In this document: piece by piece, positions 34,954-63,094 of the stretch | Position numbering within the stretch: the stretch's first letter is position 1 | How the letters are laid out: every line of letters starts with the position of its first letter | Assembly (NCBI GenBank): GCA_963664235.1 | Contig: OY760933.1 | Coordinates: 2,395,419 to 2,459,418, forward strand | Direction of reading: 5' to 3' | Length of the DNA stretch: 64,000 nt | Source: Acidimicrobiales bacterium | Lineage (GTDB): Bacteria > Actinomycetota > Acidimicrobiia > Acidimicrobiales > CATQHL01 | Made by a program: the position numbers and the translations under genes | Notes under the pieces: generated by a model | What the model was told of the DNA's origin: nothing | Seen by the model: only the letters and a program-made list of their open reading frames with translations | The model's database searches: none

Positions 34954-35253
34954 CCGCCCGGGCGCGCCGTCGCCCGATCAGTCCTGCACGGGTCGGCGTC
35001 GGAGTCAATTCTGGGGCGGCGTGAGGCCCAGTCGGTGATTGTGAGCGGCGCGGAGAGGGCGCATTGTCGGCGGTCCAGTCTGTCGACTATTTCTGCGCCG
35101 TTTTGCTGGGTTCAGTCTTTGACTGCAAATTTCGCGAATTGGCATTCCGTCTCAGTCGTTTTGTAGGTTGTCGAGGGTCTTGATGCAGTCAAGACGAGTC
35201 CGCTGTTGTCGGGCGTCCATGACCGGCGGTTCTGGACCCTGGAGGAGTCTGAG

Positions 35254-36744: not shown

Positions 36745-37251
36745 TTAGGCGTAGGGGTTTGCGAAGGGGCTCTGTTCCTGGAATGGGCGGGGCTGGCCGA
36801 CGAATTGGATCAGTTCGATGGAGACGCCGTCGGGGTCCCGCAGGTAGCAGGCCATGTTGCCCTTGTACTTGCCCCAGGCGCAGCGGACCGGCTCGGGTGA
36901 GCGGAATTCGGCCCGGCCGCGCATGCGCTCGTAGTCCCGGTGGATGTCTTCGGTCTCCAGGCAGAGGTGGGTGTTGCCGGCGTTGTAGGACTCCATGTCC
37001 ACGCGGCCCGGCCCCGGGTTGTGGTACTCCAGCATCTCCAGCACGGTGCCGCCCGGCAGGGTCCAGAAGACGCAGGTCATGTCGCAGTTCTCGTACCCCA
37101 CGATGTGCCCCACGTAGTCGTCGATGTCGGCCGCCAGCCAGGTGGCCTGCCAGAAGGGCTCCGACTCGAGGAAGTAGCTCCACCACGGAACCGAGACCTT
37201 GAGGTCCTTGACCGTGATCCCGATGTGGTCCACCGACTTGAACGCTGCCAT
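36745..37251 (-). CDS. VOC-family (glyoxalase/dioxygenase fold) protein
   Basis: VDHIGITVKDL..GNTHLCLETEDI..YLRDPDGVSIELI. Confidence 0.8.
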   Translation of the reverse strand: MAAFKSVDHIGITVKDLKVSVPWWSYFLESEPFWQATWLAADIDDYVGHIVGYENCDMTCVFWTLPGGTVLEMLEYHNPGPGRVDMESYNAGNTHLCLETEDIHRDYERMRGRAEFRSPEPVRCAWGKYKGNMACYLRDPDGVSIELIQFVGQPRPFQEQSPFANPYA

Positions 37252-37294
37252 GGCGTGCCCCTTTGTTGCGTAGGCCGTCGGTGAGGACAGTAGG

Positions 37295-38746
37295 TCAGGA
37301 GCCTTGCAGCGTGCTGAGGCGGAGCCGGTCGGCCTTGCCGCTGAAGGTCCGCGGGAAGGCGGGGAGGATGTGGACCCCGGCGGGGAGGAGCGACTCCGGC
37401 ACGCGGGCCGCGATGAAGTCGGCGAGTTCCGCCTCCTCCGCCAAGCCCGGGGCGTTCAGCTCCACGAAGCAGCGCACTTGCTCGCCGCCGTCCAGCACCA
37501 CTGAGGCGTGGCGCACCGCGGGGTGGTCGTAGGCGGCGTCCTCCACCTCGCGGAGGAAGCCGCCCCGACGCTCGGCTGCGTCGGCCTCTTGGACTCGACC
37601 CATGACCTTGATGTGACCCTGCGCCGCGGCGACCCCGACGTCCCCGGTATGGAGGACACCGCCCGCGGTGGTCTTGGCATAGGCCTCGGGTTTGTTCCGG
37701 TACTCACCGAAGAACCCTTCGGCCACGACGACCTCGCCGATGCTCCCGGCGGGGAGTTCCCGATTGTCGGGGTCTGCCACGAAGGCGAGCCGGTCCGGGA
37801 GTGGCCTGCCTGCGAAGCCCTCAGGAGCGGTCTCGTCGCCTGGGGTTCCGAGGACCATGAACCCTCCGAGTTCGCTCTGGCCGTAGCTCTCGGCGAGCGG
37901 AATGCCAAGGTGGTCTCGGTAGTCCCGCTTGATGCGGGGCGCCAGTGGTGAGCCGCCGGAGAGCGCCAGGCGCAACCCGTGCGTGGGTTGGGTGTCCTTG
38001 GCCAGCCCGACGACATCGGCGAGGGTGAGCGGGTAGGCCACGAGCACCGTTCCCCCGTAGGCGGAGATGTCATCCCACACCTCGCGGGGAGAGTGCCCGG
38101 CGGCGAGGACCACGTGGGCGCCGGTGTGCAGGGCGGGCATGGCGCTGGCCACGAGCTGGAAGCTGCTGGCCACCGGCGTCGTCGCCACCAGCACGTCACT
38201 CGTGCTGTATCCGAGCCGCTCGGCGATGCAGGCGGCCCCCAGGGTGACAGGACCGCTCGTGAGCACGACCCCCTTCGGGTCGCCTGTCGTGCCGGAGGTG
38301 TAGGAGAGGAACAGCGGGGAGGACTCGTCGTGATCCGACGGCGCGGTCGCCGTCCCCCCGCCGCCGGCCACGTCCTGCAACGGCGTGGCTTCGATGCCCA
38401 GGAGTTCGGCGAGGCGCGGACGGTTCTCATCGTCGGAGACGACGACGGCCGGGTCCATGTCGCCGACGAAGTAACCCAGCCGGTCATCGGGTGTGCGGGC
38501 GTCGATGAGGGCCGGCAGGGCACCCAGCCGCCACACGGCGAAGATGGCGAGCCACGCCTCGATGCTGTCGGGGCTGCAGATGCCGACGGTGCTTCCCTTC
38601 GCGGCGCCCAGTTGGGCCAGGTTCGCTGCCACGACCGGCACCTGCTCGCCGACCTCGGCGTAGCTGACGGTCCGCCCCTCGCGGCTGAGCGCGGGTCGGT
38701 CCGCGTGTCGCTCGCAGGCTCGTTGGAGGACTGTGACGATGTCCAT
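37295..38746 (-). CDS. AMP-dependent synthetase/ligase
   Basis: ATG at 38746. LSYTSGTTGDPKGV AMP-binding motif. GEVVV..YRNKPE..TGDVG..GRVQE..GKADR. Confidence 0.85.
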   Translation of the reverse strand: MDIVTVLQRACERHADRPALSREGRTVSYAEVGEQVPVVAANLAQLGAAKGSTVGICSPDSIEAWLAIFAVWRLGALPALIDARTPDDRLGYFVGDMDPAVVVSDDENRPRLAELLGIEATPLQDVAGGGGTATAPSDHDESSPLFLSYTSGTTGDPKGVVLTSGPVTLGAACIAERLGYSTSDVLVATTPVASSFQLVASAMPALHTGAHVVLAAGHSPREVWDDISAYGGTVLVAYPLTLADVVGLAKDTQPTHGLRLALSGGSPLAPRIKRDYRDHLGIPLAESYGQSELGGFMVLGTPGDETAPEGFAGRPLPDRLAFVADPDNRELPAGSIGEVVVAEGFFGEYRNKPEAYAKTTAGGVLHTGDVGVAAAQGHIKVMGRVQEADAAERRGGFLREVEDAAYDHPAVRHASVVLDGGEQVRCFVELNAPGLAEEAELADFIAARVPESLLPAGVHILPAFPRTFSGKADRLRLSTLQGS

Positions 38747-38798
38747 GTCTGTCCGTCTCCCTCTGTCTCGATGCGTGTGTTCTGTCTCGATAGGTGGG

Positions 38799-40133
38799 CT
38801 AGGTCTCGATGCGGGTGGTGGTGATGTTCGCCTTGGCGAGGTAGCCGTCGATGACCTCCATCGCCTGGCGGCGAAGCTCCTCGGCGTCCAGGTGGGTGAA
38901 GGCACCGTTCTCTATGACGACGTCGCCGTCCACGATGACGTGGCGCACGTCGGATCCGCCGGCGCGGTGCACCAGGTTCCAGGCCGGGTCCAGGATCGGG
39001 CCGAAACCCAGGCCGTCCGCCGCCACGCAGACCAGGTCGGCGAGCGCCCCGGGCGAGACCTCGCCGAGTTCACCGCCCAACCCGACCGCCTTCGCGCCGT
39101 TGGCGGTCGCCATGCGCAGCGCCAGCCGCGGGGGGATCGCGCCGGGGTTCTCGTTGCGGATCGACTGCAGCAGGACCTCCTGGCGCATCTCGGCGAAGAT
39201 GTCGGTCATCTGGTCGACCCCCAGGCCGACGTTCACGCCGGCGTCCAGCAGGTCGAGCACGCGGGTGAATCCCTTGGCCAGCTTCATGTGATTGCTCGGG
39301 CAGTGCACCACATGGGTGCCCGACCGGGCGAGCAGGTCGATCTCGGCGTCGGAGAGCAGCACGCAGTGCACGAGGGTCACGTCGGGGCCGCAGAACCCCA
39401 GCCGGTCGAGGAGTTCGATGGGCCGGCAATCCGCTTCGGCCTCGACGCTTGCGACCTCGGCGGCCGTCTCGGCCACGTGCGTGTAGAGCCGGAGGCCGTA
39501 GGTGGAGGCGAACTCCCGGGCGGCGACATAGTCCTCGGGCGCGGCCTGGCGGAACGACACGGGTGCCAGCATGATCCGCTCGGCCGCCACGCCGTCGGCG
39601 AGAAGCGCACGAACCCGCCCGAGTCCTTCGGTGATCGGCTCGCAGATCGGGTCGTGGCCCCGGGTCATGAGGCCCCGGGCCAGGACCCAGCGGATGCCGG
39701 TGGTCTCGTATCCGGCGATGGTGGCCTCATCGAGACCGGGGAGGTGGAACGGGTAGACGTGGTCGACGACGGTCGTCACGCCGGCGGCCAGGAGCCGGGC
39801 GGTGCTGTAGGCCGCCATCGTCTCGTACTCCACCGGACCAGCGGCCTCGTTCAGCTGCCAGTAGAACCGCAGCATCTTGTCCAGCTTCAGGCCCTCGCCC
39901 GCGCTGAGCCCGGGCGTCATGTCACGCAGGTGGTCGTGCAGGTTGACGAGTCCGGGGATGACGATGGTGCCCGACGCGTCCACCCGGTGTCGGGCCCGGA
40001 GAGGCGGGCCGCCGACGGCGACGATCCGGCCGCCGTCGACGTAGATGTCGCCGCCGGTGACCTCGTCGGTCTCGTTGCAGGTGACGCAGAGGCCGCCCTC
40101 TACGACGAGGTCGACGTCACCCGCGGGTGGCAC
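38799..40133 (-). CDS. metal-dependent amidohydrolase (ATZ/TRZ/SsnA-like)
   Basis: GLVNLHDHL, THVAET, HCVLL and GVDQ. Confidence 0.85.
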   Translation of the reverse strand: MPPAGDVDLVVEGGLCVTCNETDEVTGGDIYVDGGRIVAVGGPPLRARHRVDASGTIVIPGLVNLHDHLRDMTPGLSAGEGLKLDKMLRFYWQLNEAAGPVEYETMAAYSTARLLAAGVTTVVDHVYPFHLPGLDEATIAGYETTGIRWVLARGLMTRGHDPICEPITEGLGRVRALLADGVAAERIMLAPVSFRQAAPEDYVAAREFASTYGLRLYTHVAETAAEVASVEAEADCRPIELLDRLGFCGPDVTLVHCVLLSDAEIDLLARSGTHVVHCPSNHMKLAKGFTRVLDLLDAGVNVGLGVDQMTDIFAEMRQEVLLQSIRNENPGAIPPRLALRMATANGAKAVGLGGELGEVSPGALADLVCVAADGLGFGPILDPAWNLVHRAGGSDVRHVIVDGDVVIENGAFTHLDAEELRRQAMEVIDGYLAKANITTTRIET

Positions 40134-40136
40134 GGA

Positions 40137-41276
40137 TCACCACCAGCCCTGCTCGGCCGCGTTTCGGAGCCCCTCGACGCCGAGGCCCTCGAGGTCCCAG
40201 CCGGCCAGTGTCTTGCCCTCCGCCGCGTAGTCGCACTGCGAGGCCACCGAACCCACGACGATGAGGCTGTCGATCATGGGCGTGGCCACGCCCAACTCCC
40301 GGCCCAGCGACGAGGCCAGGACCAGCGAGTACGGGATGTCCTCGGAGACGAACCGGTGGTCGAGCGCATCGGGGCTGCAGCGGAACTGCAACGTGGGCAG
40401 CAGGCTGGAGTGCAGGGTCTCGTGCAGGTCGGCACCCTTGACCGGCGCCAGCCCCTGGCCCACCAGGTAGTCCTCGTACGGTGTGGCGTTGGCGATGCCG
40501 AGGGCTTGGCGCATCTCCAGGTACTCATTGTCGAGTGCCTCGATGATGTTGACCACGCCGCGAGTCCCGCCGGTTCCCCAGAGGCTGAACGTGCCCTCGG
40601 GCTGCTGGATCGGCCCCAGATTGCAGAGCATCGCCGGGACGTGGTCGATGGCGTTGAAGTTCAGGAGCAGCGTCTCCCAGACGTTCTCCGCCTCGGTGAC
40701 CCAGGGCCAGATTCCCGCGGCTACCGCCGCCACCGCGTCGATGCGGGTGCTCGGCAGGGCGGAGACGAGCGTGCCGCCGCTCTTGCGGATCGCCCCCACC
40801 TTGCCGGGCGCGGTCACCATGGCGCCGTAGTAGGGGAGGGTGTTGGTGTCCGCGAAGGTCACGCCGGGCCGCCTGCCGATCCGCCGGAGCGCCGCGGTGG
40901 CCGCGAAGCCGCCGCCGGGCTCGCCGACCCAGAGCGCCGTCTGGCCCTGCTGCCACACCGGAGCGAGGAGTTCGGCCAGCGGTTCGTGCCCGAACGCCGG
41001 CACGCAGATGATCACCAGTTCGGCGCCGGCGGCCGCGGCGACGACATCGGTGGAGGTGGCCGCCACGGGAGCGAGTTGCGACTCCGCGGTCGTGTCGGTC
41101 AGCGAGGTCCGGAAGGTCAACTCGATGCCGCCTGCGGCGTCGGCGGCTTCGAGGCTGGCGCTGAACCGGGGTTGGTCGGCCAGGGTGACCGGCCGGCCGT
41201 TGAGGCCGAGTTCGGCGGCGATGGTCAGGCCGCCGCCTCCTGTTCCGATGACGGCGATCTCGCTGGGTGCGGTCAT
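40137..41276 (-). CDS. NAD(P)-dependent opine (octopine/nopaline-type) dehydrogenase family protein
   Basis: ATG at 41276 (ATGA overlap with the LLM gene stop). Rossmann motif IAVIGTGGGGLTIAAEL. C-terminal ..NAIDHVPAMLCNLG..DIPYSLV.. is typical of the family. Confidence 0.7.
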   Translation of the reverse strand: MTAPSEIAVIGTGGGGLTIAAELGLNGRPVTLADQPRFSASLEAADAAGGIELTFRTSLTDTTAESQLAPVAATSTDVVAAAAGAELVIICVPAFGHEPLAELLAPVWQQGQTALWVGEPGGGFAATAALRRIGRRPGVTFADTNTLPYYGAMVTAPGKVGAIRKSGGTLVSALPSTRIDAVAAVAAGIWPWVTEAENVWETLLLNFNAIDHVPAMLCNLGPIQQPEGTFSLWGTGGTRGVVNIIEALDNEYLEMRQALGIANATPYEDYLVGQGLAPVKGADLHETLHSSLLPTLQFRCSPDALDHRFVSEDIPYSLVLASSLGRELGVATPMIDSLIVVGSVASQCDYAAEGKTLAGWDLEGLGVEGLRNAAEQGWW

Positions 41277-42262
41277 TGCGGTTCTCCTCCGATGACGGGG
41301 CTGAGGGTCTCGAGCAACTCTTTCGTGGCCGAGTGGTCGCTCTGGTCGAGTTTCAGGATCGCCAGATCCACGCCGAGCGCGCGGAGTTCGTCGAGACGCT
41401 GCGCGACCGTCTCGAGTGTGCCGCCGATTGCGAAGGCCCGGACCATGTCGTCGGTCACGTATCCCGCCTCGCGGACGTCGGGGTCGTTCAGGGCTGATCG
41501 CAGCGTGGCGACTTCGCCGGGGTCGAACCCGTAGACCGGGATCAACTCGTTGGCGTAGCTGCCTCCCGCCATGAGGGTGCAGCGCGGGCGCAGCCGCTCG
41601 ATGGCGGTCGCCTCGTCCCGCTGGACCTCGACGTCCAACATGACGGCGATCCGGCACTCCTGGGGGTCGCGCCCCGACCTCTCGGCGCCGCGGGCCACGC
41701 GGGCCCGGGCGTAGTCCAGGAAGTCGCGATGCACGCCGTGGATGATGACGCCGTCGGCGATCTCGCCGGCAAGCTCCAGCATCCGGGGACCGCGCGCCGA
41801 CAGGTAGATCGGCGGGGGTGCGGTCCGCCAGCCGAGTGCCGAGCCGTCGGCGGAGAAGTACTCACCCCGGAATCGCGCCGGACCCGAGCCGAGTTGGCGG
41901 ATGATCGCAACCGCCTCCCGGAGCATCGTGAGCGGGCTCTTGGGGCGCATCCCGAACTGGGAGGGGAACTCGTGGCCGCCCGGGCCGATCCCGATGACGG
42001 CGCGCCCGCCGGAGCATTCGGCGACCGTGGCGGCGGCGCTGGCGATGAGGGCGGGGTGGCGCAGTTGGATCGCGGCGACGCCCGTGGCCAACCGCATCGA
42101 CGTGGTCCGCGCCGCGATGAGGGCCTGCGCCACGTACACGTCGCGCAGGAAGTAGTGGTCGGGGAGCCACACGTCGGAGAATCCCGCGCCCTCCGCGGCG
42201 ACGGCAAGCTCGGTGAGCTCGCTGAGGGGCTGGTCCAGCCAGATTGCCAGGCCGTACTTCAT
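41273..42262 (-). CDS. LLM-class (luciferase-like) flavin/F420-dependent oxidoreductase
   Basis: MKYGLAIW..GFSDVWLPDHYF..RLATGVAAIQLRHP..IGIGPGG. Confidence 0.85.
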   Translation of the reverse strand: MKYGLAIWLDQPLSELTELAVAAEGAGFSDVWLPDHYFLRDVYVAQALIAARTTSMRLATGVAAIQLRHPALIASAAATVAECSGGRAVIGIGPGGHEFPSQFGMRPKSPLTMLREAVAIIRQLGSGPARFRGEYFSADGSALGWRTAPPPIYLSARGPRMLELAGEIADGVIIHGVHRDFLDYARARVARGAERSGRDPQECRIAVMLDVEVQRDEATAIERLRPRCTLMAGGSYANELIPVYGFDPGEVATLRSALNDPDVREAGYVTDDMVRAFAIGGTLETVAQRLDELRALGVDLAILKLDQSDHSATKELLETLSPVIGGEPQ

Positions 42263-42383
42263 CGGTTCGTGTTCGGGGGTGTGCGGTGATCCATCGGCGT
42301 TCCAGCGAGTACTGCCGGGCCGACACGATAGTGAGGCGTCCGGCGCCTGGTGCCGTGCGGGCCGCGCTGGCGGCTGCGCCGGC

Positions 42384-43796
42384 TCACAGGCGCGCCATCA
42401 CAGCGCGGGCCGCCTCCCGTCCCCTCGCCCGGACTTCCGCCTCGTCGATGGTCGTGCTGGCGCCGCCGGCGACGACGACCTGCCCACCCACTATGACCGT
42501 GGTCACGTCCCCGCCGGTGGCGAACCAGCCGGCACCGGCCAGCGGGTCGTTGCTGGGCTCGTGGTGTAGGGCCGAGGTGTTCACGACGATGAGATCGGCC
42601 CGCTCGCCGGCTGCGATCGTGCCGCTGCCGTCGCCCAGCGCCGCGGCGCCACCGCCGCTGATCAGCTTGATCATGTCGCCGACGCTGATGGCGGCTGCGT
42701 CGGTGGCGGCCACGCGTTGCAGCAGGGCGCCGACCCGGGCGACGGTGAACATGTCCTGACCGGCGACCGCGCAGCCGTCTGTGCCGGCCGCAAGTGGAAC
42801 CCCCCGGGCGCGCAGCTCAAGCAGTCGCATGATGCCCGAACCCAGGTAGGCGTTGGAGAGGGGGTTGTGGACGAGGTGCGGGCGGTGCTCGCCGGCGAGG
42901 TCGATCTCGGCGTCGTCCAGCCACACGGCGTGGGCCAGGACGGCGTCGGAGTCCAAGACGCCCAGGTCCTCGAGCAGCACCAGCGTGCGTCGCCCATCCC
43001 GGAGGCGGTGCGTGACGTCGGCGGCGAAGGCGTCCTCGGCGGCGTGGGTGTGCCAGCGCACGCTGTGGCGCCTCGCCAGATCGGCGCCGGCGGCGAGGAT
43101 CTCGTCGGAGCAGTAGGCCGTGTTGGCCGGCCCGGGCCACACCGCCACCGGACCGGCGGGTTTCGCCAGCATGGCCTGCTCGGTGAGTTCGAGTTCCTCG
43201 GCGTTGCTGTAGGCGAAGTTGGCGGCCGGGAGCCCGAACGCCTCGGCGGCGTCGGTGCGTTCCCCGACCATCATCCGCGCAACCGCGCCCGCCAACCCCA
43301 CGCGCTCCATTGCGTCGGCGACCGCCACGGCGTCCTCGGGCTCCCGGCGGCCCCCGTAGTGGTGGTTGATCGCCGCGACGGTGCCCGACCGCAGCGCGTG
43401 CAGGGCGCCGAGTTCGCTCAGCGCCACCATCTCGTGGCGCCGGAGTTCCAGTGCCAGCGGGATCATGTGTGTGCTCAGCCACTCCGCCAGCCCGAGACCG
43501 TCCCCGAGGCCGCGGGCGGCCACCTGGAAGAGGTGGGTGTGCGCGTCGACGAGGCCGGGCATGACGATGCAGCCCGTGGCGTCGATGACCCGCTGGGGAC
43601 TCACCGCCGGGCGACCCTCGAGCGGCCCGACCGCAGCCACGCGATCCCCGACGACGTCCACGAACCCCGTCTCGATGGGCTCGGCCGCCTCGTCGAGTGT
43701 GAGGATCGTGCCGCCCTCGATGCGCACGTCGGGCGCGGGGAATTCGTCGGGCAGAGCTGAGTGCGCGATGCCTGCCGTCTCGCTCGGGCCGTTCAC
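42384..43796 (-). CDS. metal-dependent amidohydrolase (aminohydrolase/deaminase-like)
   Basis: PGLVDAHTHL, WHTHAAED, LAHAVWL and GTDG. Confidence 0.85.
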   Translation of the reverse strand: MNGPSETAGIAHSALPDEFPAPDVRIEGGTILTLDEAAEPIETGFVDVVGDRVAAVGPLEGRPAVSPQRVIDATGCIVMPGLVDAHTHLFQVAARGLGDGLGLAEWLSTHMIPLALELRRHEMVALSELGALHALRSGTVAAINHHYGGRREPEDAVAVADAMERVGLAGAVARMMVGERTDAAEAFGLPAANFAYSNAEELELTEQAMLAKPAGPVAVWPGPANTAYCSDEILAAGADLARRHSVRWHTHAAEDAFAADVTHRLRDGRRTLVLLEDLGVLDSDAVLAHAVWLDDAEIDLAGEHRPHLVHNPLSNAYLGSGIMRLLELRARGVPLAAGTDGCAVAGQDMFTVARVGALLQRVAATDAAAISVGDMIKLISGGGAAALGDGSGTIAAGERADLIVVNTSALHHEPSNDPLAGAGWFATGGDVTTVIVGGQVVVAGGASTTIDEAEVRARGREAARAVMARL

Positions 43797-43871
43797 GACA
43801 ATGCAGCGTATTGACTGCGGTTGCGGTACGTCAGACGAGTGGCGGGTGTACCGGCGAAGCCGCCGTCGCCC

Positions 43872-44378
43872 CTAGTCCGGCGGTGCGGGGTACCAGTAGT
43901 CCGGTGCCACGGGCTTGGCATCCGGCGGGCGGTGGACGAGCTCGAATGTGGTTTTGAGGGGACCCTCCGTCTCGACGTAGGCGTAGCGGATCCCGTCGAT
44001 ACATCCCTCCATCACCGGCGGGCAGCCGCGCTCGGTGAACAGCGCCAGCGCCTCGTCGTAGCCGAGCCCCTCGTGTTCGACGATCACGTGGTGGAGCCCC
44101 TCGCCGCGTTCGTCGAGGTGCTCCTGGTAGATGGACGGGCCGTCGATCGGCTCGATGATCTCCCACATCGTGGCGCCCGTGCGGGCGACGGCCAGCTTCA
44201 TGCTGTAGGGGACGGGCTCACCGCGGATGCGCATGTCCGTGAGCCGGGGCGGCGCACAGTTGATCACGCGCCAGGGCCCGATCCCGAGCCGGTTCGCGTA
44301 TTCCTCGATTACCGCGTCGAGATCGCGGACCACGAGCGCGACCTGCTGGACTTCCGATACGAACCCGTTGGACAACAT
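43872..44378 (-). CDS. VOC-family protein
   Basis: VQQVALVVRDLDAVIEEY..MWEIIEP..GLHHVIVE. Confidence 0.7.
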   Translation of the reverse strand: MLSNGFVSEVQQVALVVRDLDAVIEEYANRLGIGPWRVINCAPPRLTDMRIRGEPVPYSMKLAVARTGATMWEIIEPIDGPSIYQEHLDERGEGLHHVIVEHEGLGYDEALALFTERGCPPVMEGCIDGIRYAYVETEGPLKTTFELVHRPPDAKPVAPDYWYPAPPD

Positions 44379-44510
44379 GTTCGATCCTTCCGATGGCCGT
44401 GGGGCCGCAGACTACGCCGGCCCTGCGATGACGCCCCGGCGACGACGTCGTGTCCGGCTTGCACCCGCCCACAGAGAAAGTCGCCCGAGCACCCCCGGGC
44501 AGCGACGGGT

Positions 44511-45740
44511 TCAGGCGCCCGCGACGTCGAAGTGGAGCTTGGTCCGGGTGGTCGTCTCGGCGACGAGGCGGCCGCGGCGGATGACAAAGCGACGGTCGGC
44601 GTTCCGGCGGAAGGCCTCGTACGCGCTCGGTGCGGACAACACGTTGAGGTTCGCCGGGTTGCCCTCGGCGATCCCGTAGTCCCGCAGACCCAGGATGCGG
44701 GCCGGGTTGGCGGTACCCATGTCCATGACCGTCTCGGCGTCGCCCATGGTGTTGAACTCCCCGGCGTGGATGGCGAAGAGTCCCGCCTCGAGCATGTCCA
44801 TCCGCCCGTACGGCGAGAACATGTCGCCGTTGTTGTTGTGGGCGTAGGCGCAGTTGATCCCGGCGGCCACCAGCTGCTTGATCCGTGACGGGCCCATGCC
44901 GGAAATGATGAGCTCTTCCTTCGGGCACGCGCAGAAGTTGATCTCCGCCGCCTTCGCAAGTTCGATCACCCGGGCGGCTTCCACGTCGGGGTAGGCGGAC
45001 AGCGCCCCCCAGTGATTCAGGGTCACCCTGCCCTCGTAGCCCTCGGTGAGCGTCCTGGCGAGCACGACCTCGGCGGCCCGGGTGCCGGAGGCGGACTCGG
45101 TGTTCTGGTCGATGTGGAGGTCGATGTCGGTGTCGTAGTCCTTGGCGATGCCGAACACGAAGTCCACGTACCGCGCCACGTCGGCAGGCGAGTGCTCCAG
45201 ATGGGGCGAGCCGCCGATGGCGTCGGCGCCCAGGTCCATGCCCCGCCGCACCAGCGCCCGGAGTTCGTCGTTCAGCGGGTTCGCCGCGGGGAGGACCACG
45301 ATCTGGAGGTCCACGATGCCGCCGAACATCTGCTTCAGTTCCACCAGCCCCTCCACGCCGGTCGTTCCCCAGGCGTGGTCCACGTCGGAATGAACCCGGA
45401 TGGCGCCTGTGCCGTTGGCGATCGCCCACTCCAGCGCCTGGCGCCCCCGCGCCACCACGTCGGCCACGGAACTGGACTGCTTGGCCACGTACGAGCGCTC
45501 CAGGCTCTCGGTGATCGTTCCGGTGACCGCGGGCGGGCTCTGGTAGATCATCATCGACTTGTCCAGATGGGAGTGCGTGTCGACGAAGCTGCCGATCGCG
45601 AGCCCGCCGTCGCCGTCGATCTCTGCCTCTGCCGCCTCGGAGATGCGGGGCCCGATGCGCGTGATCTCCTCGCCGAGGATCCCGATGTTCTGGAGGTCGG
45701 CAACCCCGCGGAGCCGGACGTTGCGGATGACCAGGTCCAT
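44511..45740 (-). CDS. amidohydrolase, cytosine-deaminase-like
   Basis: ATG at 45740. MDLVIRNVRL..GSFVDTHSHLDK..IRVHSDVD..DLHIDQ..HNNNGD. Confidence 0.8.
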   Translation of the reverse strand: MDLVIRNVRLRGVADLQNIGILGEEITRIGPRISEAAEAEIDGDGGLAIGSFVDTHSHLDKSMMIYQSPPAVTGTITESLERSYVAKQSSSVADVVARGRQALEWAIANGTGAIRVHSDVDHAWGTTGVEGLVELKQMFGGIVDLQIVVLPAANPLNDELRALVRRGMDLGADAIGGSPHLEHSPADVARYVDFVFGIAKDYDTDIDLHIDQNTESASGTRAAEVVLARTLTEGYEGRVTLNHWGALSAYPDVEAARVIELAKAAEINFCACPKEELIISGMGPSRIKQLVAAGINCAYAHNNNGDMFSPYGRMDMLEAGLFAIHAGEFNTMGDAETVMDMGTANPARILGLRDYGIAEGNPANLNVLSAPSAYEAFRRNADRRFVIRRGRLVAETTTRTKLHFDVAGA

Positions 45741-45831
45741 CGTGCACCTCCGCACGTTTCTGCGGCGGACATTGTCGCGTACACCGGCCCCGTTCGACCG
45801 CGGCGCCCCGAAACCTGACACGCGAGGGGCG

Positions 45832-45889
45832 GTTAGACAGACTTCCATTTTTTGTGTACTGTCTAACGAAAGCGGTGTTGACTAACACC
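45832..45889. promoter_or_regulatory. two palindromes in the AT-richer divergent promoter region
   Basis: GTTAGACAG (45832-45840) and CTGTCTAAC (45859-45867) flank CCATTTTTTGTGTA. GGTGTTGACTAACACC (45874-45889) contains TTGACT. Confidence 0.4.
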
Positions 45890-47322: not shown

Positions 47323-49373
47323 AGCGATTGATTGCTGTACTGGCGCTGGTAGTGCTCGTCGCCGCGGCCTGCGGAGACGATGACGACTCGGCCGCCCCGG
47401 AACCGGTGGCGCCGCCACCGGCAGATACCCCGGCTGACGCCCCGCCGCCACCGGCGGACGAACCCGCTGCGGCGCCTGCCGCAGAGTCGATGCTCGATGA
47501 GTTGAATGTGGCGTATTTCTTGGAGTGGCCGACGGCGAATCAGGTGGCTCAGGCGGAGCAGACCTATGACGCTGAGTTGGGTTTGACGGTGAATTGGTTC
47601 CCGTTCGCCAGCGGCGGTGACATGGCTCAGGCGATGGAGTCCGGTGACATCGACATCTCCTATTCGCAGGGGTTGACGCCGTTCGCCAACTTCGTGACCG
47701 GCGGTTCGGACCTGTTGCTGGTGGGTGTGGCGGTGAGCTACGCGGACGCCGACAACTGTGTGGCGCATCCCGATTACGGGGTGACTGCGGAGAACGCGGC
47801 GGAGACTCTGGCGGGTCAGAGCGTTTACACGCCGTTGGGCAATGTGACGCACTTCAAGCTGTTGAAGATGCTGGAGCATCTGGGGGTGGACACGTCCACG
47901 GTGAATCTGATCCAGTCCGAGGGCGGTCCGGCGGCTGTGGCCGCGTTGGAATCCGGTGACGTGGCCCTGGCGTGCGCGTTCGGCGGGGCGGTGAACCAGA
48001 TGATCGCCAATGGCGGCAATCTGGTGATGACCGGGTCCGAGCAGGAGGCCATCGGCATCCGGGTGTTCGACATCATTTCCACCACCGGTGATTTCGCGGC
48101 GTCCCATCCCGACGTCCTGACGGGCTTCTTGCAGGTGACCGAGGACGCCAACCGGGCCTACAACGATGATCGGGGGCCGTTCATCGACACCATCGCCGGG
48201 GCTGCGGGCATGGACCGCGCTCCGACGATCGCGCTGTTGGACGCGTTCAGCTTCCCCGAGAAGGACACCCAGCTCTCCGAGGCGTGGCTCGGCGGCACCG
48301 TGCAGGCCGTGATGAAGGAGCAGATGGACTTCTTCGCCGCCCAGGGCGAGATCGAATCCGCGCTTCCCAGCTACGACGCCTTCGTCGACACCACCTTCCT
48401 CGAAGCCGTCACCGGCCGTCCCGCCGGCGAGGCTCCGGCTGAGTCGATGTTGGATGAGTTGAATGTGGCGTATTTCTTGGAGTGGCCGACGGCGAATCAG
48501 GTGGCTCAGGCGGAGCAGACTTATGACGCTGAGTTGGGTTTGACGGTGAATTGGTTCCCGTTCGCCAGCGGCGGTGACATGGCGCAGGCGATGGAGTCCG
48601 GTGACATCGACATCTCCTATTCGCAGGGGTTGACGCCGTTCGCCAACTTCGTGACCGGTGGGTCGGACCTGCTCTTGGTGGGTGTGGCGGTGACCTACGC
48701 GGACGCCGATAACTGTGTGGCGCATCCCGATTACGGGGTGACTGCGGAGAACGCGGCGGAGACTCTGGCGGGTCAGAGCGTTTACACGCCGTTGGGCAAC
48801 GTGACGCACTTCAAGCTGTTGAAGATGCTGGAGCATCTGGGGGTGGACACCGCGACGGTGAATCTGATCCAGTCCGAGGGTGGCCCGGCGGCTGTGGCCG
48901 CGTTGGATTCCGGTGACGTGGCTATGGCGTGCGCGTTCGGCGGGGCGGTGAACCAGATGATCGCCAATGGCGGCAATCTGGTGATGACCGGGTCCGAGCA
49001 GGAGGCCATTGGTATCCGGGTGTTCGACATCATCTCGACGACCGGCGACTTCGCGGCGGCGCATGGCGATGTTGTGACGGGCTTCCTGCAGGTCACCGAG
49101 GACGCCAATCGGGCTTACAACGATGATCGGGATCCGTTCATTGACACCATCGCTGAGGCTGCGGGCATGGACCGGCCCGCGACGATTGCGCTGCTTGATG
49201 CGTTCAACTTCCCCGAAAGTGACGTGCAGCTGTCCGATGCGTGGCTCGGTGGCACCGTGCAGGCCGTGATGAAGGAGCAGATGGACTTCTTCGCCGCCCA
49301 GGGCGAGATCGACTCCGCACTCAGAAGCTACGACGCCTTCGTCGACACCACCTTCCTCGAAGCCGTCAACTGA
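47319..49373 (+). CDS. lipoprotein: tandemly duplicated NMT1/TauA-like ABC substrate-binding protein
   Basis: MKRLIAVLALVVLVAAAC lipobox, followed by two near-identical modules of about 319 aa each, both beginning AESMLDELNVAYFLEWPTANQ. Confidence 0.85.
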   Translation: MKRLIAVLALVVLVAAACGDDDDSAAPEPVAPPPADTPADAPPPPADEPAAAPAAESMLDELNVAYFLEWPTANQVAQAEQTYDAELGLTVNWFPFASGGDMAQAMESGDIDISYSQGLTPFANFVTGGSDLLLVGVAVSYADADNCVAHPDYGVTAENAAETLAGQSVYTPLGNVTHFKLLKMLEHLGVDTSTVNLIQSEGGPAAVAALESGDVALACAFGGAVNQMIANGGNLVMTGSEQEAIGIRVFDIISTTGDFAASHPDVLTGFLQVTEDANRAYNDDRGPFIDTIAGAAGMDRAPTIALLDAFSFPEKDTQLSEAWLGGTVQAVMKEQMDFFAAQGEIESALPSYDAFVDTTFLEAVTGRPAGEAPAESMLDELNVAYFLEWPTANQVAQAEQTYDAELGLTVNWFPFASGGDMAQAMESGDIDISYSQGLTPFANFVTGGSDLLLVGVAVTYADADNCVAHPDYGVTAENAAETLAGQSVYTPLGNVTHFKLLKMLEHLGVDTATVNLIQSEGGPAAVAALDSGDVAMACAFGGAVNQMIANGGNLVMTGSEQEAIGIRVFDIISTTGDFAAAHGDVVTGFLQVTEDANRAYNDDRDPFIDTIAEAAGMDRPATIALLDAFNFPESDVQLSDAWLGGTVQAVMKEQMDFFAAQGEIDSALRSYDAFVDTTFLEAVN

Positions 49374-61882: not shown

Positions 61883-63094
61883 ATGACCAGCGACGCAGAG
61901 AGTTCCATCGCCGAGATCGTCGCCAACGACCTGTGTGTCGGCTGCGGTCTGTGCGAGGCGCTCACCGGGGGTCGAGTCAAGATGGTGATGACACCGGCCG
62001 GGTCGCTGCGACCCTCGTCGGTCGACGCGTTCTCGCGCCGGGAGGAGGCGCAGCTGGTGGCCGCGTGCCCGGGCGCGGTGGCGGAGGCTCGCATCGAGGA
62101 CGGCATCGATACTGATCTCGTGTGGGGAGCGCACCGGTGGATGGCATATGCGTGGGCCGGCCGGCCCGGGACGCGCCACCGGGCCGCGACCGGGGGAGTG
62201 CTGACCGCGCTGGGCGTTCATGTGCTGCGCACCGGCCGGGCCGACTTCGTGCTTCACGTCGGGGCCGACCCCGAACGGCCCATGCGCAGCCGCTGGATCC
62301 ATTCGGAGGACCCCGAGTCGGTCCGCGCCAACACGAGTTCGCGCTACGGGCCGACCGCACCGCTCGCAGGCCTCGCCGCAGCGCTGGAGCGTCGCCGCCC
62401 CTTCGCGATCATCGCCAAGCCGTGCGACCTTGGAGCCGTGCACGCGCTTTCGAAGAGCGATCCTCGTGTCGACGAGTTGTGCGTGGTCCGTCTGGCTCTC
62501 GTGTGCGGCGGCCAGTCGCGCCTGTCCAAGTCGCAGGCCGCCCTCGCCGAGTTCGGCATCGAGGAGGACGCCGTGGCGCTGTTCCGCTACCGCGGCCACG
62601 GCAACCCGGGGCCGACCGTGGTGGAGACCACCGCCGGCGAGCGCTTCACGAAGTCCTACCTGGAGATGTGGGAGGACGAGTCCGGTTGGGACGTCGAGAC
62701 TCGCTGCAAGCTGTGTCCCGATGCCCTGGGTGAGGCGGCCGACGTGGCCGCGGCCGACGTCTGGCCCGGCGGGTCGCCGACCGGCGACGACGAGGGGTTC
62801 AACGGGATCATTGTGCGCACCGCGGTCGGCGAGGACCTCGTGGCCTCAGCGGTCGAAGCCGGAGACCTCGTGGTCGGGGACCCCATCACGCCGAGAGAGT
62901 TCGACGGCCTCCAGCCGCACCAGGTCCGCAAGAAGGAGGCCCTGGCCGCTCGCTATGAGGGGTTGGCCGACGCGGGTGTCGCTCCTATTGAGACCAGCGG
63001 TCTGCGCATCGCCGAACTCGGGCGCCGGATCGACGCAGAACGCTTCGCGCACGAACGCTCCGGCGCACGCCGCAGGATCCGGGCGACGGGCTAG
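61883..63094 (+). CDS. FrhB/FdhB-family (coenzyme F420 hydrogenase/dehydrogenase beta-like) protein
   Basis: NDLCVGCGLCEA, SGG-like ATGGVLTAL, IAKPCDLGAV and CKLCPD. Confidence 0.65.
   Translation: MTSDAESSIAEIVANDLCVGCGLCEALTGGRVKMVMTPAGSLRPSSVDAFSRREEAQLVAACPGAVAEARIEDGIDTDLVWGAHRWMAYAWAGRPGTRHRAATGGVLTALGVHVLRTGRADFVLHVGADPERPMRSRWIHSEDPESVRANTSSRYGPTAPLAGLAAALERRRPFAIIAKPCDLGAVHALSKSDPRVDELCVVRLALVCGGQSRLSKSQAALAEFGIEEDAVALFRYRGHGNPGPTVVETTAGERFTKSYLEMWEDESGWDVETRCKLCPDALGEAADVAAADVWPGGSPTGDDEGFNGIIVRTAVGEDLVASAVEAGDLVVGDPITPREFDGLQPHQVRKKEALAARYEGLADAGVAPIETSGLRIAELGRRIDAERFAHERSGARRRIRATG

Follow-up and report, generated by a model that had tools for sequence, protein, structure and literature searches.

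An eight-gene operon of amidohydrolases and F420- and opine-type oxidoreductases in an Acidimicrobiales bacterium: a candidate for N-heterocycle catabolism beside, but apparently independent of, a taurine module

The operon and its genes

The genome of an Acidimicrobiales bacterium (GenBank assembly GCA_963664235.1) contains, within the 64,000-nucleotide stretch analysed here (contig OY760933.1, positions 2,395,419 to 2,459,418; hereafter the window), a run of metabolic genes that lies back to back with genes for taurine dissimilation. Positions 36745–45740 of the window are filled by eight open reading frames (ORFs) on the minus strand with high third-position GC content, and these encode three metal-dependent amidohydrolases, two oxidoreductases of different families, an AMP-dependent ligase and two proteins of the VOC fold. 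The window is part of a single-contig genome of 3.49 Mb (G000; ~70% GC), and the nearest public relatives of this genome are metagenome-assembled genomes (MAGs) labelled Acidimicrobiales. Gene families were called with Pfam and NCBIfam, and the genes are named as follows.

36745–37251, minus strand: VOC1, glyoxalase/VOC-fold protein (Pfam Glyoxalase, 2.6e-10); the last gene of the operon
37295–38746, minus strand: AMP-dependent ligase (AMP-binding, 1.7e-63)
38799–40133, minus strand: Amh1, cog0402 amidohydrolase resembling TRZ/ATZ enzymes or 8-oxoguanine deaminase; motifs HDHL and HxxE
40137–41276, minus strand: OpDH, NAD(P)-dependent opine-type dehydrogenase (Octopine_DH, 6e-33)
41273–42262, minus strand: LLM, luciferase-like oxidoreductase of the F420 type (Bac_luciferase, 8e-60)
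42384–43796, minus strand: Amh2, cog0402 TRZ/ATZ-like amidohydrolase; motifs HTHL and HxxE
43872–44378, minus strand: VOC2, Glyoxalase_4 protein (1.6e-10) with a weak likeness to methylmalonyl-CoA epimerase (TIGR03081, 1.6e-6)
44511–45740, minus strand: Amh3, metal amidohydrolase resembling cytosine deaminase and AtzC; motif HSHL

The start of the ligase was moved to an ATG behind a GAGGGAG ribosome-binding site, and the start of Amh3 was taken as the ATG behind GGAGG; in both cases the point at which the alignments of relatives begin was also used to set the start. Read from VOC1 to Amh3, the intergenic gaps are 43, 52, 3, −4 (an overlap), 121, 75 and 132 bp, so that only 3 bp separate Amh1 from OpDH, and OpDH and LLM overlap by 4 nt. 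An earlier reading of this DNA, made from the sequence alone, had described a nine-gene operon of same-strand, tightly spaced or overlapping genes. The spacing bears out that description, and so does the gene content: the two VOC proteins, the LLM protein, the opine-dehydrogenase-family enzyme and the AMP ligase were all recovered by Pfam and NCBIfam, and the three HxH motifs are where they were said to be, with an HxxE motif accompanying each. The count was off by one, as the genes listed in that reading themselves sum to eight, and because every intergenic gap is too small there is no room for a ninth.

The eight genes form a real operon. Their arrangement is not a matter of chance, because the gene order is kept, at 74–94% protein identity, in at least eight independent contigs or genomes, and the LLM-OpDH-Amh1 core reappears in other lineages at 43–57% identity. 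Between Amh3 and VOC2 (44482–44501), the minus strand has a hairpin that resembles a terminator and is followed by a weak T tail, and transcription of Amh3 may for this reason be partly uncoupled from that of the downstream genes.

A rare, conserved core

When metagenomes were scanned with an alignment built from 20 OpDH orthologs, 57 loci were obtained, among which we call those with 74–94% OpDH identity the close clade. Six loci of this clade have long flanks (4 kb or more on both sides), and every one of them carries LLM, OpDH, Amh1 and the ligase. The other two amidohydrolases are less constant: L050 and L052 lack Amh3, of which L055 retains a remnant, and Amh2 is missing in L052 and L055. 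Since they are lost in close relatives, Amh2 and Amh3 are dispensable accessories. VOC1, at the far end of the operon, is 92–98% conserved in L050–L055.

The association extends well beyond this clade. OpDH orthologs at 43–63% identity almost always adjoin genes for an LLM protein and an Amh1-type amidohydrolase, and the genes in these distant loci often follow the order LLM-OpDH-Amh and overlap or are closely spaced. Among loci with long flanks, five of five distant orthologous ones combine LLM and Amh1 with all three subunits of a molybdenum hydroxylase of the xanthine dehydrogenase (XDH) family and a sugar-acid dehydratase, and the pattern of core plus XDH was also found in Phytoactinopolyspora, Spongiactinospora, Nonomuraea and genome G294. 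A ligase gene adjoins OpDH or a paralog of it in nine loci (L056, L057, L065, L071, L072, L077, L094, L099 and L101). The conserved unit is LLM, OpDH and Amh1, usually with the AMP ligase.

The genes that recur around this unit include GntR regulators of the FCD or UTRA type, membrane proteins of the EamA, MFS and DUF6198 families, ATP-binding cassette (ABC) importers of the NitT/TauT or sugar type, and enzymes such as RraA-like proteins, KDPG/KHG aldolases, ILVD/EDD or MR_MLE dehydratases and 2-hydroxyacid dehydrogenases. A minimal cluster (L040) consists of DUF6198, LLM, OpDH, Amh, GntR and a permease of the xanthine/uracil family. Acyl-CoA dehydrogenases, creatininase-family proteins, Rieske/VanA-type oxygenases and a UbiD decarboxylase are each neighbours in single variants. 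In Phytoactinopolyspora, the XDH linked to the core has 4-hydroxybenzoyl-CoA reductase as its nearest match, with aldehyde oxidoreductases and xanthine/nicotinate dehydrogenases next.

Two further observations concern these families. Paralogous clusters of an OpDH2 type (L071, L077, L094, L099 and L090) repeat the association of ligase, OpDH, Amh and LLM with two OpDH copies, and carry as extras Rieske/VanA-type oxygenases, a creatininase-family protein and paired acyl-CoA dehydrogenases; in the variant L099, the UbiD decarboxylase gene sits between LLM and Amh. Separately, the genomes of the window and of two close relatives (G301 and G302) encode unusually large sets of molybdopterin-binding large subunits of the XDH/carbon monoxide dehydrogenase family, with 17, 15 and 17 members above the Pfam cut-off, respectively.

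The core is rare. An ortholog of OpDH was present in one of 300 sampled Acidimicrobiia genomes (a sample that also gave paralogs of ~30% identity in unrelated contexts) and in none of 400 sampled Actinomycetota genomes, and a tblastn search of OpDH against 72,556 plasmids gave no match at 1e-30.

This distribution bears on whether the eight genes serve a single pathway at all. They could instead comprise housekeeping deaminases that salvage or detoxify damaged or unusual bases, for instance 8-oxoguanine, isoguanine or 5'-deoxyadenosine, and that happen to stand beside unrelated redox genes. Such an arrangement would accord with the independent gain and loss of Amh2 and Amh3, with the hairpin that follows Amh3, and with the top NCBIfam similarities of Amh1 and Amh2, which are to 5'-deoxyadenosine deaminase and 8-oxoguanine deaminase. 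The scores, however, are far under the equivalog cut-offs, the sparse occurrence of the core ortholog is unlike that of housekeeping salvage, and the tight spacing or overlap of LLM, OpDH and Amh1, together with their co-divergence across lineages, marks them as a functional unit. We therefore consider an assemblage of this kind unlikely.

The two redox enzymes

OpDH has the two features that define family PF02317, an N-terminal Rossmann motif and a C-terminal Octopine_DH domain, and its score of 114 bits is well over the cut-off of 30. Among solved structures, the best match is N-(1-D-carboxyethyl)-L-norvaline dehydrogenase (CENDH; PDB 1bg6, 8.8e-25). CENDH has a catalytic His-Asp pair (H202 and D297) and an Arg to which the 2-oxoacid binds (R292); in the alignment their counterparts in OpDH are H212, D313 and R308, and these three residues are invariant in 20 orthologs, as are the glycines of the GxGxxG Rossmann motif (G11, G13 and G15). 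Because the catalytic residues of CENDH are kept and do not vary across the orthologs, OpDH is very likely a genuine amine/2-oxoacid dehydrogenase of the opine type, and it is predicted to cleave an N-(1-carboxyalkyl)amine oxidatively.

The 16 best NCBIfam matches of the LLM protein are all to F420-dependent LLM families or to the methylene-tetrahydromethanopterin reductase Mer, and families that depend on FMN reach at most 52 bits. An archaeal Mer is also its best solved relative (PDB 1z69, 1.1e-51). The protein stays below the Mer equivalog cut-offs (218 versus 276 bits for PRK02271; 195.6 versus 348.7 for TIGR03555), and a role in C1 metabolism is unlikely. Its family placement points to an F420H2-dependent reductase, with a C=N or C=C bond of a ring as the predicted target. 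The window genome encodes adjacent CofD and CofE proteins that score above their cut-offs (G000:C1:8276-9963), and CofE is encoded in seven of the seven core-carrying genomes examined.

Amidohydrolases, ligase and VOC proteins

The amidohydrolases match the Pfam families Amidohydro_1 and Amidohydro_3, and all three have the HxH and HxxE motifs of metal binding and catalysis; a C-terminal Asp motif (GTD or GxD) was seen in Amh1 and Amh2. The solved relatives of Amh1 are 7ww2 (8-oxoguanine deaminase/AtzB; 1.9e-48), 3hpa (1.1e-46) and 2paj (1.6e-26), those closest to Amh2 are AtzA (2e-36) and MTA/SAH deaminase, and those closest to Amh3 are E. coli CodA (4e-54) and AtzC (1.5e-45). We predict that Amh1 is the core ring-amide hydrolase or deaminase, coupled to the reductase, that Amh2 is an accessory deaminase or a hydrolase of the dechlorinase type, and that Amh3 is an accessory exocyclic deaminase.

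These relationships raise the question of whether the operon encodes a funnel like that of the Atz and Trz enzymes, with Amh2, Amh1 and Amh3 standing for AtzA, AtzB and AtzC and acting on an s-triazine or aminopyrimidine. Removal of three substituents would give cyanuric or barbituric acid, the ring of which would be opened by an AtzD-family enzyme encoded far away, and LLM, OpDH and the ligase would be unrelated passengers. The assignment of AtzA, AtzB (in an entry shared with 8-oxoguanine deaminase) and AtzC as best or near-best solved relatives of the three proteins speaks for such a funnel, and the genome does encode one protein of the AtzD/TrzD/barbiturase family (1e-133; L111:8537-9943, equivalent to G000:C1:404854-405930), a family found in none of 14 control genomes. 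That lone gene adjoins an ORF with multiple RidA domains and a hydantoinase B gene; it lies ~2 Mb from the operon, and no biuret or allophanate hydrolase is encoded near it. Furthermore, the similarity of Amh1–3 to the Atz enzymes is at the level of the family, with no equivalog cut-off attained, and it is Amh1 that is locked to LLM and OpDH across lineages while Amh2 and Amh3 are dispensable even in close relatives. On balance an Atz-like funnel seems improbable.

The solved structures matched by the ligase include the LgrA adenylation domain, malonyl-CoA synthetase and oxalate-CoA ligase, with an adenylation domain of a non-ribosomal peptide synthetase as the best. It is predicted to activate a small or heteroaromatic carboxylate with coenzyme A (CoA). 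The roles of the two VOC proteins can be assigned only weakly: VOC2 matches 3gm5 (4.9e-16), and comparison of VOC1 with solved structures gave no informative relative.

The similarity of the ligase to an adenylation domain is one reason to ask whether the operon might be biosynthetic, with an adenylating enzyme, a reductive condensing enzyme of the opine type and an F420 reductase that together make a metallophore resembling an opine, or else a natural product with an N-heterocycle. Opine dehydrogenases make metallophores of the staphylopine type, and F420-dependent LLM proteins serve as imine reductases in some antibiotic pathways. The operon lacks, however, a carrier protein, a condensation domain, a nicotianamine-synthase-like gene and an exporter, and the company kept by the core in related clusters is typical of catabolism: uptake ABC systems with binding proteins, a nucleobase permease, GntR repressors, molybdenum hydroxylases, aldolases and dehydratases. 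A biosynthetic function is in our estimation quite unlikely.

The taurine neighbourhood

On the opposite strand, the operon is flanked by genes for a class-III aminotransferase, TauA in tandem, TauB, TauC, an Fe-S/NrfD protein, a molybdoenzyme and Xsc, the last of which is bona fide (985 bits versus a cut-off of 676). The divergent orientation noted in the sequence-only reading is thus correct, and from it that reading had drawn a speculative function. The operon would degrade a taurine conjugate, such as tauropine or another N-substituted taurine, with OpDH freeing taurine and pyruvate for Tpa and Xsc.

Besides the adjacency in the window, the intact opine-type catalytic triad of OpDH and the taurine-gene neighbours of the operon in L050, L051/L054 and L052 favor this idea. 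The comparison of genomes does not. When genome contigs were scanned with a single protein, just two close relatives came up, the MAGs G301 (locus L002) and G302 (locus L003), which have the operon at 80–86% protein identity. Transglutaminase, alpha-E and ATP-grasp genes anchor the operon on the same side in the two MAGs, but upstream of Amh3 there are unrelated genes, encoding MscS in L002 and PhyH in L003, and in L002 a serpin gene takes the place of VOC2. Both MAGs have xsc, with the module whole from aminotransferase to Xsc, but on other contigs.

Among the close-clade metagenome loci every intermediate state was seen. The operon stands with the full taurine module in the window and in L051/L054, with the module minus TauABC in L050, with the aminotransferase alone in L052, and with no taurine genes nearby in L055 and L053, as in L002 and L003. 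Farther away, no xsc above the cut-off is present in four distant core-carrying genomes (G294, Phytoactinopolyspora G303, Nonomuraea G304 and G305), and in the five distant orthologous loci with long flanks, where molybdenum hydroxylases are linked to the core, neither the aminotransferase nor Xsc was found. The co-occurrence with tpa and xsc across genomes that had been put forward as a check on the taurine idea is therefore not conserved, and outside the close clade the core is found where the taurine genes are not.

The spacer between the divergent genes leads to the same result. It measures 169 bp and combines two control regions, each with its own candidate element.

45763–45773, no strand assigned: near-palindrome CGACAATGTCG, starting ~33 nt upstream of the Amh3 start codon; candidate operator/promoter element of the operon
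45832–45867, no strand assigned: 9-bp inverted repeat GTTAGACAG/CTGTCTAAC, occurring once in the genome; candidate operator of the taurine module

The near-palindrome CGACAATGTCG is conserved upstream of the operon in L050, L051 and L002, the last of which has no taurine genes nearby. The repeat GTTAGACAG/CTGTCTAAC is kept in front of the aminotransferase gene in both G301 and G302, although the operon lies at another place in these genomes, and for that reason it belongs to the promoter of the aminotransferase, and so of the taurine module, rather than to that of the operon. The promoter region that the two transcription units had been thought to share is one spacer, then, but the elements within it are separate.

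The enzymes themselves offer little for tauropine cleavage, as OpDH is closest to the bacterial CENDH, its match among invertebrate proteins is weak and confined to the N-terminal domain (Pecten octopine dehydrogenase, 2e-9), and the reaction would give no role to three amidohydrolases of the deaminase type. Catabolism of a taurine conjugate is consequently very improbable. The operon looks functionally independent of the taurine module, and their adjacency inside the clade looks like the product of a rearrangement-prone region. More generally, divergent adjacency can mislead functional inference where, as here, two independent modules with their own control elements are joined in a stretch prone to rearrangement.

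Several features of that stretch deserve mention. Window positions 35000–63100 make up a plasticity zone that reaches from the transglutaminase gene to a gene for a protein of 403 aa (61883–63094), as comparison with loci L002, L003 and L050–L055 shows. Within the zone the taurine module may be whole, partly deleted or absent, and an orphan gene of the PD-(D/E)xK type is found in the window, L002 and L051/L054 and is absent from L003, L050, L052 and L055. The TauA binding-protein module is tandemly duplicated (47481–49370) in the window genome specifically, and single in L051 and G302. In G302, the Amh3 ortholog (L003:5601-6835) matches as two overlapping pieces in different frames, reflecting either a frameshift or an assembly error.

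A proposed function

Starting from the observed gene families, catalytic motifs, conserved linkage and independence from taurine genes, we suggest, with a probability of about 0.58, that the operon serves the F420-linked catabolism of an amino- or oxo-substituted N-heterocycle and does so independently of the taurine module. In what order the steps occur, that F420 takes part and what kind of compound is degraded are deduced from the families of the proteins and the linkage of their genes. A nucleobase-like or pteridine-like compound or an azine carboxylate could be the substrate, and the candidates include 6- or 7-oxopteridines, purines and pyrazinones.

In the proposed sequence, the accessory enzymes Amh3 and Amh2 would turn exocyclic amino groups into oxo groups and so give a ring lactam; in distant relatives, the three-subunit molybdenum hydroxylase of the XDH family would install the oxo group in place of the deaminases. 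The Mer-like LLM protein would then transfer hydride from F420H2 to a C=N or C=C bond of the ring, beside the lactam, and Amh1 would hydrolyse the ring amide and open the ring. If the carbonyl carbon is bonded to a carbon that bears a ring nitrogen, the ring-opened product would be an N-(1-carboxyalkyl)amine, a substrate of precisely the opine type, and its oxidation by OpDH could release an amine and a 2-oxoacid. Together, the ligase and the VOC proteins may handle the resulting acid as its CoA thioester, or may activate a substrate that bears a carboxylate in the same form. In related clusters, aldolases, dehydratases and 2-hydroxyacid dehydrogenases would consume the acid, and the accessory genes of these clusters, for RraA-like proteins, an aldolase, dehydratases, 2-hydroxyacid and acyl-CoA dehydrogenases and UbiD, suit chemistry of the 2-oxoacid and CoA kind.

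A number of points weigh against this proposal. No gene for a regulator or a transporter lies inside the operon. None of Amh1–3 reaches an NCBIfam equivalog cut-off, all scores being far below those of the equivalogs compared (8-oxoguanine, 5'-deoxyadenosine, guanine and cytosine deaminase, SsnA and HutF). The part given to OpDH is predicted from its conserved catalytic residues, and we found no precedent for the step. The window genome has no ortholog of the core-linked XDH above 35% identity, the value of the best match. The aminotransferase adjoins the operon in four related arrangements, including L052, where the rest of the taurine module has been lost, and so a loose side link between the two may exist. 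Finally, cofG and cofH, which encode Fo synthase, are missing from the single-contig window genome, so that F420 supply would need scavenged Fo. The same combination of CofD and CofE without CofG and CofH occurs in G301 and G302, while G294 has all four, which suggests that Fo scavenging is used to make F420 in the window genome, G301 and G302.

A broader conjecture, which we offer tentatively and regard as doubtful at present, is that LLM, Amh1 and OpDH constitute an undescribed reduce-hydrolyse-oxidise module that dismantles lactam-type N-heterocycles and is fed by either molybdenum hydroxylases or, as in this operon, deaminases. Candidate substrates for it are oxidised pteridines, purines, pyrazinones and azine carboxylates. 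If it holds, F420 would gain a new physiological role, and the opine dehydrogenase family a new catabolic one in free-living bacteria.

Were the proposal correct, it would describe a new route for the breakdown of N-heterocycles, a group that takes in nucleobases, pterin pigments, cofactors and synthetic azines. It would also give F420 a part in ring dearomatisation in aerobic Actinomycetota and explain what an orphan branch of the opine dehydrogenase family does in the cell. The logic of the recently discovered reductive pathway for uric acid would thereby be extended.

Comparison with known systems

The sequence-only reading did not recognise the gene combination as a characterised pathway, and we concur: full-text literature searches for the combination found no paper that describes it, and the nearest published pathways differ from it in membership. 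Individual enzymes have closer counterparts. OpDH resembles CENDH of Arthrobacter sp. 1C (PDB 1BG6) over its full length, with the His, Arg and Asp residues kept, although sequence similarity is low and the gene context unrelated. With the invertebrate tauropine and octopine dehydrogenases it shares the Pfam family PF02317, but the sole match to these is the weak, N-terminal one noted above, and the linkage to taurine genes is not conserved. The closest characterised relative of the LLM protein is Mer, the F420-dependent methylene-tetrahydromethanopterin reductase of methanogens, from which it differs in its sub-cut-off score, its bacterial host and its place in an operon of catabolic type.

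The three amidohydrolases come from the same two subfamilies as AtzA, AtzB and AtzC (and TriA and TrzA), and the solved structures that match them best include Atz enzymes. The likeness to the s-triazine pathway is nonetheless distant, as the operon is without AtzD, AtzE and AtzF and the conserved partners are LLM and OpDH.

In Cupriavidus sp. LA-1, cluster I degrades pterin and lumazine by means of a molybdenum hydroxylase, a pterin deaminase and hydrolytic ring processing, and in Actinomycetota the pterin deaminase is of the cytosine-deaminase-like type (PMC12391406). A cytosine-deaminase-like deaminase is shared in the form of Amh3, and a UbiD decarboxylase is found in the variant cluster L099. 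The operon itself has no molybdenum lumazine dehydrogenase, no UbiD, and neither the Amidohydrolase_2 6,7-dihydroxylumazine isomerase of cluster I nor its GTP-binding partner, and cluster I for its part lacks LLM, opine dehydrogenase and ligase; the operon was accordingly rejected as a lumazine/pterin cluster. The riboflavin/lumichrome pathway was likewise rejected as a match on comparison with the published pathway.

The reductive pathway for uric acid (2,8-dioxopurine) is encoded in E. coli by xdhD-ygfK-ssnA-hyuA-ygeW-ygeY-ygeX (PMC12507026). In it, an XDH-family molybdenum enzyme is followed by a reductive dearomatisation that is obligately coupled to ring cleavage by SsnA, a relative of the TRZ/ATZ enzymes, and a variant with an F420-dependent reductase of the luciferase family is predicted in Chloroflexota (PMC12507026). 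The operon is not a cluster of this pathway. Its proteins score 122–140 bits with SsnA models against cut-offs of 444–455, and Amh1 and Amh2 (123 and 131 bits versus the cut-off of 455.5) are not SsnA orthologs; the downstream families HyuA, YgeW, YgeY and YgeX are absent from the operon, as is XDH, and the uric acid pathway in turn has no opine-type dehydrogenase or AMP ligase. In its chemistry, though, it is the nearest parallel to what we propose, for the first three steps suggested for the operon, from the installation of the oxo group through reduction of the ring to its hydrolytic opening, would mirror it.

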